Shown piece by piece: positions 56,289-64,000 of a stretch of 64,000 bases of DNA. How positions within the stretch are numbered: position 1 is the stretch's first letter; each line of letters begins with the position of its first letter. The notes under the pieces are model-generated. The model was not told where the DNA came from. It saw nothing but the letters and a program-made list of their open reading frames with translations, and did not search any database. The DNA comes from an uncultured delta proteobacterium (GTDB lineage Bacteria > Desulfobacterota > RBG-13-43-22): positions 86,569 through 150,568 of the forward strand of contig CAVUPH010000033.1 in the NCBI GenBank assembly GCA_963743305.1, given 5' to 3'. A program made the translations under genes and the position numbers.

Positions 56289-56545
56289 TTCTTTTCCCTC
56301 CTTTTCCAGGTTATTCATTAAGGATACCTAATCCGAAGCTCGACTTCTATAATCAAAAACTACTATTTCAATGGTAAAAAAATAGTATTTTTGAAATTAC
56401 ACTCAGGCGTTAGATGATATTAGGGAGGGTACCCTTTGTCTGACCTGCGGTGACTGGCGGTCATATTCGACGTAATAGATGCGGAGAATGTTCTTGTTTT
56501 TGCGGTGAATAATCGGCATAATGTCCGCAAGGAGTGCGAAGAATT

Positions 56546-57658
56546 ATGGACTATATCCACGATAAGAAGAATTGGCCAAAACTGACTTGGAGTCCGGAGC
56601 GGCTTGCAGGGCAGCTTGCCGGCGTACGTCATCGTCAGGGACGCCTAGTCGGGCGCATGGAGGGGTTGGGTTTTTCACTCCGCAACGAAGCCGTACTACA
56701 AATCTTGACTGAGGATGTTCTCAAATCCAGTGAAATCGAAGGTGAAAAGCTGGATAGGGACCAAGTGCGATCTTCAATCGCCCGCCGGTTGGGTCTTGAT
56801 TTCGGCGGACTTTCACCGGTTGATCGGCATGTCGAGGGCGTTGTTGAAATAATACTCGACGCCACCGAACATTATGCCGATCCGTTGACTGAAGAACGTC
56901 TATTTGCCTGGCACTCCGCTTTGTTCCCAACTGGGCGCAGTGGTATGAAGAAAATCGTGGTGGGCGGCTGGCGTGACGATAAATCCGATCCCATGCAAGT
57001 GGTTTCCGGCCCGATGGGCCGGGAGAAGGTGCATTATCGGGCTCCCGAGGCTAAGCGGGTTCCCGAGGAAATGCGAGCTTTCCTGAAATGGTTTAACGGA
57101 CCCGAATCTGCCGATCCGGTGCTAAAGGCAGGTCTGGCGCATCTCTGGTTTGTGACGATCCATCCTTTTGAGGACGGTAACGGCCGGATCGCTCGGGCGA
57201 TTGCCGATATGACGCTCGCGCTTTCGGAAAAAACCAGCCAGCGTTTTTATAGTATGTCGGCGCAAATTCGTCTGGAGCGAAAGGTCTACTATAACCTGCT
57301 GGAAAAAACCCAGAAAGGCGGCCTGGATATAACCCCCTGGTTGGAATGGTTCTTGGGCTGCCTGGATCGCGCCATTGACGGCGCAGAACATATCCTGGCC
57401 GGCATCTTCCTCAAGACCGAATTCTGGGAAGCGCATACCCGCAATCCGTTCAATGAACGCCAGCGAGCCATCATCAACAGGCTATTCGACGGTTTTGAAG
57501 GAAAGCTGACTTCTTCCAAATGGGCCAAGTTGGCCAAATGCTCGCAGGATACCGCCCTCAGGGATATCGGCGATCTGGTGAAGCGTGGCGTTTTGTTGAA
57601 AGAGCCCGGCGGCGGTCGCAGCACGAGTTATGCCTTGACAGACCGATGGGCAAGGTGA
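56546..57658 (+). CDS. Fic-family protein (DUF4172 N-terminus, C-terminal HTH)
   Basis: HPFEDGNGRIAR, SSEIEGE and C-terminal DTALRDI..L...GGRSTSY. Confidence 0.92.
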   Translation: MDYIHDKKNWPKLTWSPERLAGQLAGVRHRQGRLVGRMEGLGFSLRNEAVLQILTEDVLKSSEIEGEKLDRDQVRSSIARRLGLDFGGLSPVDRHVEGVVEIILDATEHYADPLTEERLFAWHSALFPTGRSGMKKIVVGGWRDDKSDPMQVVSGPMGREKVHYRAPEAKRVPEEMRAFLKWFNGPESADPVLKAGLAHLWFVTIHPFEDGNGRIARAIADMTLALSEKTSQRFYSMSAQIRLERKVYYNLLEKTQKGGLDITPWLEWFLGCLDRAIDGAEHILAGIFLKTEFWEAHTRNPFNERQRAIINRLFDGFEGKLTSSKWAKLAKCSQDTALRDIGDLVKRGVLLKEPGGGRSTSYALTDRWAR

Positions 57659-58800: not shown

Positions 58801-59439
58801 TCAACTGAACAACCCCACAAGTACCGCGGTCACGATGATCTGCAGTGCAATGATGGTCGTAATCCGGAACGGCCTATGGGCCATAAATCTTTCCGGGCCG
58901 GGTAGGGCTTTAATGAAGAAAGAGGCGTTAGCCAGATTGAATACTACGATTATCCAAAACAGGGCCATACCTCCTCGGTATACCCACCAGCAAAAAATCC
59001 CATAGATGGACTCGAACACGAAGGCCACAACCGGCTTCTTCTCATAGAGCCCCAAGCCGAACTTCCTGCTGCCTGGAATCGGCGATAGGGCAATATCCCG
59101 GGCATGGCTGATCAGATCGAGCACCAGGTGAGAACCTATCCCCAGCGCCACGGCTATTCCTACATTAAGCGCCCCGAAGCCTAAGGCCAAGAGTATCCCT
59201 GCTCCCACCGCCAAAGCCGCCGTGGAGACCACGGAGTGAGAAAACGGCATGTACTCCAGATGCACGTCACTGACCGATTTTACCCTGTTCTCGGTTGTGG
59301 TCTTTTCCACCCCGAGAAAGTTTAAGGCAACCCAGAGGATCTCGATGAGCTGGACGGACACCAGGATTAAGGCCATCGGCACCTCGGGATATATCTTTTT
59401 GATAATCAGGCCGGTGGCCGCGTGATTTATGGCGAACAT
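58801..59439 (-). CDS. Membrane protein, metal-dependent hydrolase-like
   Basis: [13 protein letters not shown] and [10 protein letters not shown] motifs; several TM segments. Confidence 0.7.
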
Positions 59440-59863
59440 GACCAAGTTCCTCTTTATCGGCGTCTTTTTTTGTCTTCCTTTATTGGAATTCCGCTTAGAA
59501 GGCACATTTTCAGAGGAAAATCAGCATTTAGACCCGAACTTGGCCCTGTTGTCGGGCATAGCCCGGACCTTGTGAGATACAGATTCGTGATCCTCGTTCC
59601 ACCAATGCACCCCCTTAGTCTGGTCCGACCCAATGCCGTTAATCCGGCATTAGGGTCATTGAATCTATGCCCCTCGGCCAATGGGCCGAGAAAATCTCGA
59701 CCTTGGTCTTCATGGTGTCCGTATCGGCATGGGAACCAGCCAACTGCCGCCATGAGGTTCTCCTCTCTTGCGAGAAGCCGAATTATAACTTTTGCATTCC
59801 AGGTTGTCGATTCGTTTCAAACGATATAGTGCACGTGGCGGGGCACTTATTTCAGTCGTAGTC

Positions 59864-59950
59864 GGAAATCGCCGAACGCCTTTTGGGGGTCGGTAGTCGC
59901 ACCTTCGATGAATTCACTATCAGGTCGGGTATGAGGATATTCCCTTTTTC
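59864..59950 (+). pseudogene. Remnant of a GlxA/AraC regulator 3' region
   Basis: Matches 48064-48151, e.g. caggtcgggtatgaggatattcc is identical. Confidence 0.7.
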
Positions 59951-60039
59951 ATATTTTTATTATATAGTGATAGTTGGATGTCGGACAGGCGACACTCCCT
60001 GCCGAGCTGAACAGGATAACCATTCAGAGGACGGAAACT

Positions 60040-60291
60040 TTGGTAAACTGGAATCGTTTTCAACCGAGGGAATTCGAATACGACTTCGGTAGCGACAAGC
60101 TCTCGGTCCATGGAGTGTCCTTCGAAGAGGCAGTAGAAACCTTTTTCTCCGATTTCGTCGTTCGTCGAAACAGGCAGTTCAAAGACCGCTTCCAATTGAT
60201 TGGCCGTACATGGGCCGGAAGGCCTTTAAAGATCATTTTTCAACTCAAACCCGGCAATGTAGTCCGAATCATCACAGGATGGCCAATATGA
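60040..60291 (+). CDS. BrnT-family toxin
   Basis: K...HGVSFEEAVE.F, RF.LIG.T..GR.L and RIITGW; TTG start with GAGG. Confidence 0.8.
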   Translation: MVNWNRFQPREFEYDFGSDKLSVHGVSFEEAVETFFSDFVVRRNRQFKDRFQLIGRTWAGRPLKIIFQLKPGNVVRIITGWPI

Positions 60292-60598
60292 ACGAGAAAA
60301 AAAATCCTAAGGCAAGAAAACAAACCTCACGAGAAATCGATGACCTGGTCATCTCTCAGGCCGAAATAACGCCGCTTGGGGAGCCCCGGTTGAAGTGCGG
60401 CGGAACAAACCTGGTTCGTTCTCCATCCCTCCGGACCTCACTGAAAGGGCAGCGTTCCTTGCTCGTATCCACCATGCCCCCGGAGTCGAAGAGTGGCTGG
60501 CAAGGGTGATCAAGGAGCGAATCGAGATAGAAGAGGTGGCGTATGCGACTGCGAAGCGCGAATTGAAATCCAAACGAGAACGCCGATCGCCTGTTTAA
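60288..60598 (+). CDS. Putative cognate antitoxin, frameshift near 60365
   Basis: ATGA overlap with the toxin; EIDDLVISQAE/NAAWGAPVEV...ERAAFLARIH...WL..VI.ER. Confidence 0.65.
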
Positions 60599-60789
60599 AT
60601 CCTATCCTTTTTTCAAGAATTGATTTATAGAAATCGGGTTTTATTCTAAGGCCTCAATTGTCCGACAAAGTTTTCCATCACCCCCACAACCAAAAAAGTT
60701 GCAGAGCATCGCCCGGGAAACGTCGGTCCGTCGGATTGCGCAGTTCGATTTGACCCACCCCAGGCGGAAACATTGCCAATTGATGATAT

Positions 60790-61114
60790 AGCCCAATTAC
60801 GGGGTCATGTAGAGGAGCGATTGATCACGCAACTGCGAAAGCGGCACAAGGTCAGAGATAGAAAGGTAGGATACCTCAAGTTCAACGGGAGCAGTTGTGC
60901 GAGAAGTCCGGTCTCTACAAAGTGCCGACCTCGGCAGGCTGACAAAAGCGCATGCCCTGCGGTGAAGGACATCGGAAAGCCGTGTGCGGGAAAACCGCAC
61001 GCACGGTTTGATGAGGGAGGGCTGAGACCCGGCTGACCACTATAGTTCGGAGTAGATGCGTGCATCAAAAAGACCAAAAGTGGCAATAGATAGGGCCCCA
61101 GCTCTCTACTCTAC
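60790..61114 (+). mobile_element. Group II intron 3' fragment, copy 1 (decayed C-terminus of the intron-encoded protein, domains V and VI)
   Basis: HVEERL..QLRKRHK...GLYKVP; domain V aagccgtgtgcgggaaaaccgcacgcacggtttg at 60977-61010; domain VI ends ctactctac. Confidence 0.9.
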
Positions 61115-61182
61115 CTCTTCAATATTCCCTGAATTTGCCATTCTTTTTGGATGACCAACTCTTCACTTGACCGGATGGTTGT

Positions 61183-61389
61183 AGGATGTCCCGGATTACC
61201 CTTTCCTCGAGACGAGGCAGGAGGTCCTCCCGGTCTTTCCGGGTTCGAAAGATTTTGGTTCTTTCTATCCCGCGGGCCACGACATGGTGCAGAACACCCG
61301 GAGCGTCTAATCGTGCTTTTCTAGGCATATCCAAATGTTATTAAAGTTATCCGGCTCTGGCAACGCAATCTAGAACCTACGTCCCCTAT
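61183..61389 (-). mobile_element. 5' fragment of a RAYT element, copy B
   Basis: MPRKARLDAPGVLHHVVARGIER from ATG 61328; near-identical to 57682-57887. Confidence 0.8.
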
Positions 61390-61583
61390 AAAGTGCCGAT
61401 CTCGGCTGGCTGGACAAAGCGCATGCCTCACGGTGAAGGACATCGGAAAGCCGTGTGCGGGAAAACCGCACGCACGGTTTGATGAGGGAGGGCTGGACCC
61501 GGCTGACCACTATAGTTCGGAGTAGATGCGTGCATCAAAAAGACCAAAAGTGGCAACAGATAGGCCCCAGCTCTCTACTCTAC
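61390..61583 (+). mobile_element. Group II intron 3' fragment, copy 2
   Basis: KVPISAGWTK; domain V at 61448-61481 identical to copy 1; domain VI ends ctactctac. Confidence 0.9.
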
Positions 61584-61619
61584 CGCTTTTCACTCTAACG
61601 TATTACCTCACTACTAGAA

Positions 61620-62614
61620 TCAGACTCGCGATACGGTAGTCTTCCGCCGATTCCAGAGGATCGCATCCTTGAGCAATCCTCTGGAGAAGTCTTCGCGGAC
61701 CCAGTAGGTTTTGTCCAAGTCCGCGAGCCCTTCGCTGGTCAGCCCGAGATAAATTGGTATGCCCTGTTCATCCTTTCGGTGAGCGAGTGCAAGAACATCA
61801 CTGAGCCTGGGCGGCTTGTAATCCAAGAGCATCGCTCTCCGCTCCCATTCCGTACCTCGAGAAACGTACATCGGGTTGAGCCGGATGCAGAATGGGACGT
61901 ATCCCTACGACGCGTCTGCTCGTCAAGGAAATCGATACTACGCTCGGCTTCTAAATATGCCTCCTCATCTGTCATTCGCGGATCGGGCTTGTACAAGACG
62001 TAGGCAGTCAGGGCGCACCCGGCCTCCGCCACCCGGTCAAGTCCGACGAGAAAGCGATCTAGGGATTCACGCTTGCCCAATATGCCCTCCCGGATTCGAG
62101 AGTCGGCACTCTCAAATCCGGTTAGCACATCGATCGATTTTCCCCCGCTCAGACGGCGAAGGTCTTGCAGGGTCTCGACATCGACGAACTCGAGTCGCGA
62201 CTCGATGACTACTCGCGTCATCCCAGGAAGGGCGCTTGATGACTCCACAATCTCTAGTAGGGTGCTGTGTGGAAACGTCTGGACATCGAGAACAGAACCC
62301 TCGTTGGCGATCGTCAACCTCTCAAGTACCCCAATGGCGTATTTGACACGATCGAGCACCCCCAAGTATTGAGCGGCGATATCGTCGGCGGGGATAAACT
62401 CCTCCGACGATTTGGCCGGCAGGCTACAGAACGTGCACTGATAACGACACCTCTTCGTGTTGAACAGAATCGCTATATCGATCTCACCTAGGAAACTGCG
62501 CACTAGGAAGAAATGCGGCTCGACCTGCGATGGGCTTGAACTCCCCATAGCCTTGTGTGACCCGTGAGCATTGTAGTGCCGCCGGACCACGTCCAACATC
62601 GACTCTTTGTTCAT
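61620..62614 (-). CDS. Radical SAM protein, RaSEA/TIGR01210-like, frameshift near 61900 (about 330 aa when joined)
   Basis: CRYQCTFC, GSVLD, IESRLEFV, GFES.D..IR and YVLYKP, then IRLNPMYV..GT...YKPP.L in the next frame. Confidence 0.78.
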
Positions 62615-63522
62615 GATGATGATTTCTTCTTCTGTGATTCCGAAAGGTTAACTTCGACTGGACCGACGGAAACCTCATCTGCGCCAGCGACCGCATTGCT
62701 CCGGTTAACCACGTCTCCCGTCGTATGGATCACCGTTGGACTTCTGGATGATGAATCCACTATCGTCGTGAGAGCCTGCCCTGTATCCTCGGTGGTAAGA
62801 GACTGGATGGCTTGCTGCAGCCCCCGCGACTTGAGGCGGTACAGGTGGTGTACGACCGCCGACGACTCAGGAACGAGGTCCGTACCCAGAATCGTACTGG
62901 CGAGCGCCACCTCGTCCGGGGCCGTTAGACGCTGTCCAGTAATGTCGATTCGGCCCGCCATGTCCGTGTCTGTAAAGTAGCCGACATATCCGGTGATCTG
63001 ACGATTCGGACGGAGGTAATGGACCAGTGAGTAGCCAGATTTCTCCGGCCCAGCATCTCCGACATGCTTTGATCCGAAGACCAACTTTGATTGGTTGTCC
63101 GCGTACTCATGAATGATCGTCCAGTAACTCCCCGTGTACCGGCCATGGATGTCGAACTGCTTCCCGTCAATGACGAAATCCTCATCGGTATAGTTGATGG
63201 ACTCGACGGCAAAGCCGATAATCTCGCCAGTCGGCTGGCTCCGCATCGTCTCCAGCCAGTACCCCTCAATGTCCTGGCGCCCCATGATCAGGACACGCAA
63301 TCCGCGAGACTTCCGAATCGCCCAGTTAACAACCTGCTCAAACAAAACGATTGAAATCGCCCCAAGCAGAGCTATAAAGATTTGGGCAACGAAATCTCCC
63401 ACTCCATACCGCTGGCCCGAGCCTGGCAGTTTCCGCATTGCGTCCATCGAAGCGACGATAAACAAAACCATGGCAGTTGCCACGGTTTTGGCACGATCAA
63501 CGTAAGTATGGATGCGGTTCAT
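62611..63522 (-). CDS. Two-TM plus beta-strand-rich protein (S-2TMbeta/Cap15-like, tentative)
   Basis: Two N-terminal hydrophobic helices, then DIEGYW and alternating beta-strand patterns; ATGA overlap with the radical SAM gene. Confidence 0.55.
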   Translation of the reverse strand: MNRIHTYVDRAKTVATAMVLFIVASMDAMRKLPGSGQRYGVGDFVAQIFIALLGAISIVLFEQVVNWAIRKSRGLRVLIMGRQDIEGYWLETMRSQPTGEIIGFAVESINYTDEDFVIDGKQFDIHGRYTGSYWTIIHEYADNQSKLVFGSKHVGDAGPEKSGYSLVHYLRPNRQITGYVGYFTDTDMAGRIDITGQRLTAPDEVALASTILGTDLVPESSAVVHHLYRLKSRGLQQAIQSLTTEDTGQALTTIVDSSSRSPTVIHTTGDVVNRSNAVAGADEVSVGPVEVNLSESQKKKSSS

Positions 63523-63719
63523 CGCTGCGAGAATACTCTCCTTCTGACACCCTTAACCCCGACCCTAGGAATTCGTCGTCCACTGCCCGGCATCGGGTCG
63601 CCCGGCCCAATGCCGGGTAGGGAGACCCGAACTCGATCTTGCGCTCGAACGCGAACCGCCTCGTTGGCCTCAATCTTATTACATCTCCCGAAATGGTAAC
63701 CTATAAATAGGGTCGACCC

Positions 63720-63871
63720 CAATGCCGTTAACTCAAGGAATTTTTGTTGCCAATAGCGTCATTCCGTCTGAATCTGGGTTTCCGCAAAGGGTCAAAATGC
63801 TGTATTTTGGCTTCCGCCGGGATGGCCTTAGTTTATTAAATCAGAGCGAAGGTCTTAAGTTAACGGCATTA
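63720..63871. mobile_element. IS4-family-derived MITE (152 bp)
   Basis: Terminal IRs caatgccgttaactcaag and taatgccgttaacttaag (16/18), resembling IS4 TAATGCCG ends. Confidence 0.7.
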
Positions 63872-63909
63872 GACCGACCTCAATATTTTTCATAAGGTTA
63901 GACATATTC

Positions 63910-64000
63910 TTAATTTGGCACAAGCCAATTTGGGTCTGGGGTAAGGCCAGTATTCACAGCCTCTTTGTAATACTGGGTGATTGGCTTTCCGCCATGTGTA
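63910..64000 (-). CDS. C-terminal end of an unknown gene running off the window
   Basis: Open frame THGGKPITQYYKEAVNTGLTPDPNWLVPN-stop. Confidence 0.35.
   Translation of the reverse strand, partial: THGGKPITQYYKEAVNTGLTPDPNWLVPN

Follow-up and report, generated by a model that had tools for sequence, protein, structure and literature searches.

To our knowledge, the characterized effectors that combine two transmembrane helices with a β-barrel (2TM-beta-barrel effectors), namely Cap15, OptE and PanE, all respond to cyclic nucleotides from a polymerase-type cyclase. In the cyclic-oligonucleotide-based antiphage signalling system (CBASS), Cap15 is switched on by its ligand. RaSEA and queuine lyase, for their part, both cleave a C–N bond on a 7-deazaguanine derivative. 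Here we describe a two-gene cassette that brings likenesses to these proteins together, at one end of a 64,000-nucleotide stretch (the window) of an uncultured delta proteobacterium (Desulfobacterota, RBG-13-43-22; assembly GCA_963743305.1, contig CAVUPH010000033.1, positions 86,569 to 150,568). Its first gene, tm303, encodes a 303-aa protein with a predicted eight-stranded barrel, and its second a radical S-adenosylmethionine (SAM) enzyme related to RaSEA. Two reports supply precedents for the pairing of a small signal-making enzyme with a 2TM-beta effector, and describe the 2TM-beta proteins OptE (Panoptes) and PanE (PanDA) as held off by a constitutively made ligand (PMC12657218, PMC13640721). 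The role of RaSEA and its obligate complex with ArcS are set out in a third (PMC11298593).

An earlier note on the window, made from the letters alone, had proposed a defence operon in which a Cap15-like effector is coupled to a RaSEA-like enzyme. Each of the two family calls stands if taken as a resemblance, but not as membership of the family. We conclude that the pair is genuine, that its genes are linked in function and that it forms an accessory cassette. The explanation that we favour, with a probability of about 0.4, is that the enzyme makes a small ligand by which a Cap15-like membrane protein is governed; the principle would be that of CBASS, Panoptes and PanDA, the chemistry another. 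A literature search of limited coverage turned up no account of any radical SAM enzyme coupled to a protein of the 2TM-beta-barrel type.

The gene pair and its distribution

The stop codon (TGA) of tm303 and the start codon (ATG) of the enzyme gene overlap in an ATGA (Table 1), as the earlier note had read them, and the two genes are predicted from this arrangement to be translationally coupled. A chimeric or misassembled pair was considered and rejected, because the G+C contents of the two genes (0.546 and 0.554) equal that of the window (0.542). The pair recurs on a 3,826-bp metagenome contig (L031), where 61 bp separate a 261-aa homologue of tm303 (54% identity) from the intact 336-aa enzyme P0003 (58% identity) downstream of it; an AMP-binding (adenylating) enzyme comes after both. 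At the DNA level the two cassettes are alignable in patches only, at 68%, and comparison of their upstream regions found nothing in common. The window enzyme groups with P0003, P0006 and P0038 in a phylogeny built from 145 rows, and this four-member clade has an SH-aLRT support of 95. A barrel homologue, P0123, and the clade enzyme P0006 are each recorded on a single contig of 54,558 bp, from the same two sources; the two records are almost certainly one contig, which makes a third co-occurrence of the two families probable. The earlier note had undertaken to give up its proposal if the two genes were not conserved together; the pair is found again on L031, and the paired enzymes group in a clade of their own. 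The tree was built from the 28 locus proteins described below, residues 1–236 of the window open reading frame (ORF), P0003 and every protein of P0004–P0121 with a length of 300–380 aa; only the last 345 residues of ORFs longer than 360 aa were kept, and a quick method was used with the LG+G4 model. The other scan match (L032) holds a distant, truncated relative, next to which lie an IS110 transposase and ORFs of unknown kind.

Very few copies of the cassette are seen: it is known from this genome and from a few metagenome contigs. No tm303 was found in 60 genomes of relatives, and the tm303 family as defined by our alignment A2 (the A2 family) was found neither in 400 other genomes of the phylum nor in the five searched genomes that carry enzyme homologues. 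The enzyme family was absent from 20 other genomes of the same taxonomic family, three of them of the same genus, where tm303 was likewise not found, and 40 genomes of other families of the phylum gave one distant match (E 4e-21). A scan by two peptide patterns of a genome set with one genome for each of 185,579 species found no member of the tm303-linked enzyme clade. The A2 family is present in 3/401 Pseudomonadota genomes, a frequency equal to that of PF18153 (Cap15_CD_rec) in the same sample.

The barrel protein

The AlphaFold2 model of tm303 has a mean predicted local distance difference test (pLDDT) score of 84.4, with values above 90 over the barrel. It comprises helices at residues 2–30 and 41–71, a junction helix (73–83), eight strands between residues 87 and 199, helices at 202–250 and a disordered tail. 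Helix 2 is strongly hydrophobic (Kyte–Doolittle 2.28 in 19-residue windows) and helix 1 is marginal at 1.52, the value for helix 1 of the L031 homologue being below 1.5. Helix 2 is followed by a basic stretch with five K+R against one D+E, which suggests that the barrel is cytoplasmic.

Compared with known structures by VIA-align, the predicted barrel matches Yersinia aleksiciae Cap15 (7n34) with Z 13.2 and a root-mean-square deviation (rmsd) of 3.4 Å over 102/108 residues, and Cap15 7n35_A with Z 13.1 and an rmsd of 2.8 over 99/104 residues. These scores tie with those of de novo designed eight-stranded barrels (13.3 to 11.6) and of a quinohemoprotein amine dehydrogenase domain (13.1); Cap15 is the best natural structural match, and avidins and other natural proteins reach Z 9.7 at most. 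Foldseek places 7n35_A (E 4e-3, target TM-score 0.66) and 7n34 among many small barrels at E values of about 4–6e-3. In a protein atlas, a cluster in which 11% of the members carry PF18153 ranked fourth (0.88) and a Cap15 cluster twenty-second (0.84), both below the 0.9 line.

A word-index search with tm303 returned only tm303 itself, and one with the A2 profile four proteins; an exhaustive HMMER search gave 89 representatives at E ≤ 0.001, of which four, tm303 included, lie at E ≤ 1e-30. Close relatives are P0122 (243 aa, 56% identity) and P0123 (232 aa, 45%), and the closest is P0124, a 117-aa protein on a 2,624-bp contig that is 79% identical over residues 1–94 and truncated after the IEGYW motif. 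The remainder of the family is about 20–30% identical to tm303 and mostly 210–290 aa long. In a 40-member alignment R76, E86 and G163 are invariant, and G81, G87, W89, I109, G120, F169 and G181 nearly so. A sequence search of the PDB with the barrel profile gave matches at chance level (E ≥ 0.57). Two members offer softer hints: at its C-terminus P0150 has an Effector-associated domain, EAD11 (E 8e-8; 32.5 bits, where the cut-off is 26), and P0210, a member by profile (E 2.5e-40), bears the UniRef name S-2TMbeta protein, although a Pfam scan of P0210 itself found nothing.

The radical SAM enzyme and its family

The three cysteines of the CxxxCxxC motif (C56, C60 and C63) are invariant in 25/25 aligned sequences. 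The Pfam model Radical_SAM (PF04055) matches with E 2.4e-5 and 25 bits, below its gathering score of 29.5, and membership of the radical SAM superfamily is supported by the motif together with the partial TIM-barrel fold of the model of P0003, the intact relative (pLDDT 90.6). By fold, that model retrieves RlmN, lysine aminomutase, PFL-AE and viperin at E values near 1e-6, none of which stands out. The best named match of the broken window ORF is the NCBIfam model of RaSEA, TIGR01210 (E 2.8e-22, 79.3 bits), whose equivalog cut-off of 212.15 bits is not reached either by this ORF or by the intact relatives P0003 (88.5), P0006 (81.0), P0005 (87.7) and P0094 (88.4). As judged from these scores, the family is related to RaSEA but is not RaSEA; of the RaSEA-like enzyme proposed in the earlier note, the kinship stands. 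The sole solved structure matched by the family profile is queuine lyase 6p78_A, in the core region (E 5.3e-7, 31.9 bits).

At E ≤ 0.001 the family takes in 225 of 2165 candidates, most often 320–350 aa long, and 28 enzyme loci were located in named genomes of many phyla. Their neighbours, recorded by tblastn and Pfam, include a CDA-like deaminase in 11/28 loci (L015 counted), a carbamoyltransferase in nine, a non-ribosomal peptide synthetase (NRPS) module in nine, YqcI/YcgG in seven and LamG-type genes in seven. A 4HBT-type thioesterase is present in 11/28, six of these 11 having ThiF as well; aldehyde dehydrogenases and helix-turn-helix proteins are each found in 2/28. No TGT-family gene was detected beside any of the 28 by the same means. 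The thioesterase-linked enzymes form one clade of the 145-row tree (support 91).

Two of these neighbourhoods recur in recognizable form. In Actinomycetota and Pseudomonadota (L002, L003, L006–L010, L014 and L024) the enzyme belongs to a conserved cluster with the CDA-like deaminase, a carbamoyltransferase whose gene often overlaps that of the enzyme, an A-T-C NRPS module, YqcI/YcgG, a LamG/pentaxin-like protein and a 2-oxoglutarate oxygenase; this cluster is probably an uncharacterized natural-product pathway. In Chloroflexota (L011, L012, L016, L017, L020, L023 and L028) the 4HBT-type thioesterase lies directly downstream of the enzyme, and six of the seven loci encode, upstream on the opposite strand, a ThiF-domain protein of 665 aa together with another protein of about 496 aa, the latter matching no Pfam family when scanned in L011.

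The broken enzyme gene

An alignment with 24 homologues shows that the product of the first frame follows the family up to FLDEQTRRRD, the codon for the final D lying at 61901–61903, and then diverges. The conserved C-terminus of the family, VPFCIRLNPMYVSRGTEW...PPRLSDV...GLTSEGL..., lies in a different frame that runs from 61898 to the stop codon at 61620–61622, and this part matches the C-termini at all 28 homologous loci (blastp, E 2e-36 to 2e-19). The gene also appears as two matches in two frames when the genome itself is searched with the family profile, a search that found no second copy. That the gene is broken had been implied by the earlier note, which spoke of a repaired operon. Programmed frameshifting was considered and dropped, no slippery heptamer having been seen, by eye, at the site.

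If the frameshift is real, the cassette has probably lost its activity in this genome. The truncation of P0124, taken together with the broken gene in the window, hints from sequence that the cassette decays in this lineage.

What the pair may do

We favour ligand control of the barrel protein because tm303 is predicted to share the architecture and fold of the S-2TMbeta proteins, and because three systems built on such proteins use the small molecule of a neighbouring enzyme. On this reading a rare, horizontally moving two-gene cassette would encode an enzyme of the RaSEA/queuine-lyase branch that makes or trims a small molecule; the cytoplasmic barrel of tm303 would bind that molecule, and its occupancy would switch the membrane part of the protein between a harmless and a membrane-disrupting state. 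The logic of CBASS, Panoptes and PanDA would apply, the nucleotide cyclase giving way to a radical enzyme. Ligand production, ligand binding, membrane action and any anti-phage role are all proposed here by analogy with those systems. The mechanism of the earlier note, in which a modified-nucleotide signal, possibly from phage-modified bases, gates the effector, is likewise a proposal. The points in favour are the ATGA overlap, the recurrence on L031, the probable co-occurrence of P0123 with P0006, the separate enzyme clade, the fold match to Cap15, the basic stretch that suggests a cytoplasmic barrel, the accessory distribution, the presence of EAD11 in P0150, the S-2TMbeta name of P0210, weak matches of single members to Cap15-type PADLOC models, the queuine-lyase match of the enzyme profile and the precedents cited above. 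A ligand that switches the protein on, as for Cap15, fits better than one that keeps it off, as for OptE and PanE, because an intact effector gene survives beside a broken enzyme gene. More specifically, the pair might be a fourth immune module of a small signal enzyme and a 2TM-beta-barrel effector, in which the radical SAM enzyme makes or destroys a non-cyclic messenger, a modified base or nucleoside; we regard this as rather unlikely. Such a messenger would perhaps be a 7-deazapurine derivative, and what the system senses might be interference by phage with the metabolism of SAM or of deazaguanine.

Other observations weigh against ligand control of a Cap15-like effector. Homology of tm303 to Cap15 is unproven, small eight-stranded barrels being a common fold, because no sequence model matches and the comparison of profiles is not significant. 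The family model PF18153 matched 0/40 members at E ≤ 0.01 and, in a second set, 0/54 at E ≤ 1 (with five proteins common to both sets, the scans covered 89 members; P0124 and P0142 lie outside them). When the A2 family was compared by hhalign with three true Cap15 proteins, taken as controls from 3 of 401 Pseudomonadota genomes, the probability was 0.2%, the sole aligned stretch being the helix-to-barrel junction, where IEGxW meets DLNGxW. The 2TM effector models of PADLOC (PADLOC-DB v2.0.0, library of 2023) recognized none of seven tm303-family members, as against 3/3 of the Cap15 controls (14–17 models each). Among 40 members, single proteins gave weak matches to the Cap15-type 2TM models PDLC00694 (E 0.0022) and PDLC00686 (E 0.009), both of which true Cap15 proteins match strongly. 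The Cap15-like soluble domain of the earlier note is borne out by the predicted fold (Z 13.2 and 13.1) and not by the sequence models (PF18153, hhalign and PADLOC). PADLOC, which that note had put forward as a check, likewise returned no family for three window ORFs and none for the two proteins together with eight relatives (0/10).

Further points against are genomic. Only two contexts of the pair have been seen directly, and the enzyme gene is broken in this assembly. No relative of either protein was found on viral contigs, and tblastn gave no tm303 match on plasmids. Of the 28 enzyme loci none has a tm303 relative within 3.5 kb, whether by blastp or by the hidden Markov model of alignment A2, and the neighbours at these loci are mostly of biosynthetic type. 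The three A2-family members of Pseudomonadota are stand-alone genes of 330–352 aa with long charged tails and no signalling enzyme, and the surroundings of the cassette (a Fic gene, a BrnT-like ORF and intron debris) are variable DNA without a recognized defence system.

The main alternative, which we hold to be almost as probable, is that the pair is metabolic and includes no cell-killing effector. The enzyme would make, salvage or trim a small molecule, for instance of 7-deazapurine or amidine type, and the barrel would be a membrane-anchored, non-catalytic subunit for substrate binding or scaffolding that keeps the enzyme on the membrane, close to where a compound is taken up or exported. 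The biosynthetic-type neighbourhoods of the rest of the enzyme family (deaminase, carbamoyltransferase, NRPS, thioesterase and aldehyde dehydrogenase genes, counted above) are consistent with this, as are the AMP-binding enzyme that follows the pair on L031 and the use of lipocalin-like barrels as generic small-molecule binders. There is also a precedent for dependence on a partner in RaSEA, described as active only in complex with ArcS (PMC11298593). Distant members of the barrel family stand in housekeeping contexts: the neighbours of the three Pseudomonadota members are TonB-dependent receptors, an acyl-CoA dehydrogenase, methyltransferases and similar genes, and two of the three are syntenic. 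These two (L042, 8759–9751, genome G678; L043, 9289–10284, genome G616) encode proteins of 330–331 aa between a TonB-dependent receptor and an AidB-like acyl-CoA dehydrogenase, and their long charged C-terminal tails share a VVPRRR..DW motif; they look like a housekeeping rather than a defence branch of the family. The metabolic alternative is opposed by the lack of a biosynthetic gene beside the pair in the window, by the patchy, accessory distribution and the decay (the frameshift here and the truncated P0124), and by a predicted architecture that is that of known effectors, one member carrying EAD11.

Alternatively, the polarity could be that of Panoptes and PanDA: a ligand made constantly by the enzyme would silence the membrane protein, and the effector would be freed once a phage took away that ligand or the SAM from which it is made. 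The same two-gene layout is seen where OptE and PanE are held off by a constitutive ligand, according to the reports on them (PMC12657218, PMC13640721), but here the enzyme gene is frameshifted and the effector gene intact, a combination expected under this polarity to kill the cell if the assembly is correct at the frameshift and the effector is not silent; we consider this version improbable. That the two are unrelated genes and neighbours by chance is very improbable indeed, for although just two contexts have been seen directly and both families occur apart elsewhere, the genes share the ATGA overlap, they keep the same order and strand on L031 with proteins only 54–58% identical, and the enzyme clade is specific to the pairing, with a probable third co-occurrence.

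If ligand control is correct, the conserved coupling of a Cap15-like shape to a radical SAM enzyme would suggest small-molecule messengers of another class, and the large, unassigned bacterial branch of RaSEA-like enzymes would gain its first testable role. If the metabolic alternative is correct, the barrel protein would exemplify a new kind of membrane-tethered partner for radical SAM enzymes. The value of either is tempered by a cassette that is very rare, broken here and without a recognized defence context.

Genomic neighbourhood

The window ends where its contig ends, 478 bp upstream of tm303, and the neighbourhood beyond that point lies outside the sequence. On the other side, the enzyme gene is bordered by two group II intron 3' ends (RF00029; 52.1 and 51.1 bits against a gathering score of 40). 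They belong to two tandem copies on the plus strand (60915–61588), about 470 bp apart and 92–97% identical, of a unit of about 200 bp that ends in intron domain V–VI. The earlier note had placed an IS4-like miniature inverted-repeat transposable element (MITE) at the boundary; the two intron ends take its place, and no inverted repeat of at least 25 nt, MITE-like or otherwise, was found in 59400–64000. The same note had also spoken of debris from an intron and from a REP-associated tyrosine transposase (RAYT), of which the intron part is recovered; the 71-aa ORF between the intron copies, which we take by motif only to resemble the N-terminus of a RAYT, has no Pfam hit.

Further out, the Fic gene reported earlier is present, and so is the BrnT-like toxin ORF, just under its Pfam cut-off. 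The latter is followed by a 67-aa ORF (60395–60598, plus strand) that may be an antitoxin and has no Pfam hit. Other neighbours are a Usp protein, an AraC/DJ-1 regulator, a ferredoxin, a DUF5122 propeller, an AAA_14/DUF4143 ATPase, a hemerythrin, and ABM and AHSA1 proteins. In agreement with the earlier note, no cyclase, TGT or ArcS family was found among 20 ORFs scanned between 45.3 and 61.3 kb, ArcS not having been searched with a model of its own. The genome, which is 90% complete, gave no SMODS match, a search in which mCpol and DAC were not included. It does carry QueC and two TGT-family genes, all on other contigs; besides an ordinary tgt on contig C20, the second TGT-family gene (contig C30, 22191–23345) is a 425-aa open frame matched in two pieces.

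Table 1. Positions of the cassette genes and of neighbouring features in the window
Feature	Position	Strand	Basis
Gene 1 (tm303, 303 aa)	62611–63522	minus	ORF
Gene 2, radical SAM enzyme, uninterrupted ORF of 291 aa	61739–62614	minus	ORF, downstream of tm303
ATGA overlap, tm303 stop TGA/gene 2 start ATG	62611–62614	minus	Read directly from sequence
Radical SAM gene, N-terminal part, frame 1, C56-x3-C60-x2-C63	61901–62614	minus	Pfam, TIGR01210, alignment
Frameshift site, two bases between last in-frame D codon and first V codon	61899–61900	minus	Alignment
Radical SAM gene, C-terminal part, other frame (VPFCIRLNPMY... to stop)	61620–61898	minus	blastp, alignment
Group II intron 3' end fragment, 37 bp beyond enzyme stop	61446–61583	plus	RF00029
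Second group II intron 3' end copy	60975–61114	plus	RF00029
71-aa ORF between the two intron copies	61119–61334	minus	No Pfam hit at E ≤ 0.001
Fic gene	56534–57658		Pfam, E 4e-18
BrnT-like toxin ORF	59974–60291	plus	Pfam, E 8e-8, 32.9 bits, below cut-off of 34.5

Comparison with known systems

The prokaryotic viperins (pVips) are, like the window enzyme, radical SAM enzymes; they act on nucleotides in an immune role, and mouse viperin is one of the generic fold matches. They belong, however, to a different branch of the superfamily, and the lack of any PADLOC match means that none was obtained to any pVip model that this library may contain. Viperins, moreover, act alone, through chain terminators, without a membrane partner. 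Queuine lyase (6p78), an enzyme of queuine salvage, is the one solved structure that the enzyme profile finds, but its similarity to the family is weak and extends over about 147 profile positions. RaSEA, the partner of ArcS in euryarchaeal archaeosine synthesis, is closer, being the best-scoring named family (TIGR01210) with the same CxxxCxxC motif and a similar size (intact relatives of 320–350 aa). The family described here nevertheless scores far below the equivalog cut-off, is bacterial, showed no ArcS or ArcTGT neighbour in the tblastn and Pfam scans and falls into clades with many different partners.

For the barrel protein the closest described relatives in form are Cap15, OptE and PanE (S-2TMbeta; PF18153 with PF23471, Cap15_TM), which share with tm303 a compact eight-stranded barrel of about 110 residues behind N-terminal helices, those of tm303 being putative membrane helices. 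The tm303 family is of similar size (about 220–260 aa) and has a G-x-W motif at the same helix-to-barrel junction (IEGxW, against DLNGxW in Cap15), and in each case the gene stands in a two-gene operon with an enzyme. In contrast to Cap15, tm303 has an extra C-terminal region of about 100 residues and a marginally hydrophobic helix 1, and the two share no significant sequence or profile similarity. The partner also differs: where Cap15, OptE and PanE are accompanied by a CD-NTase, mCpol or DAC cyclase, tm303 is accompanied by a radical SAM enzyme.

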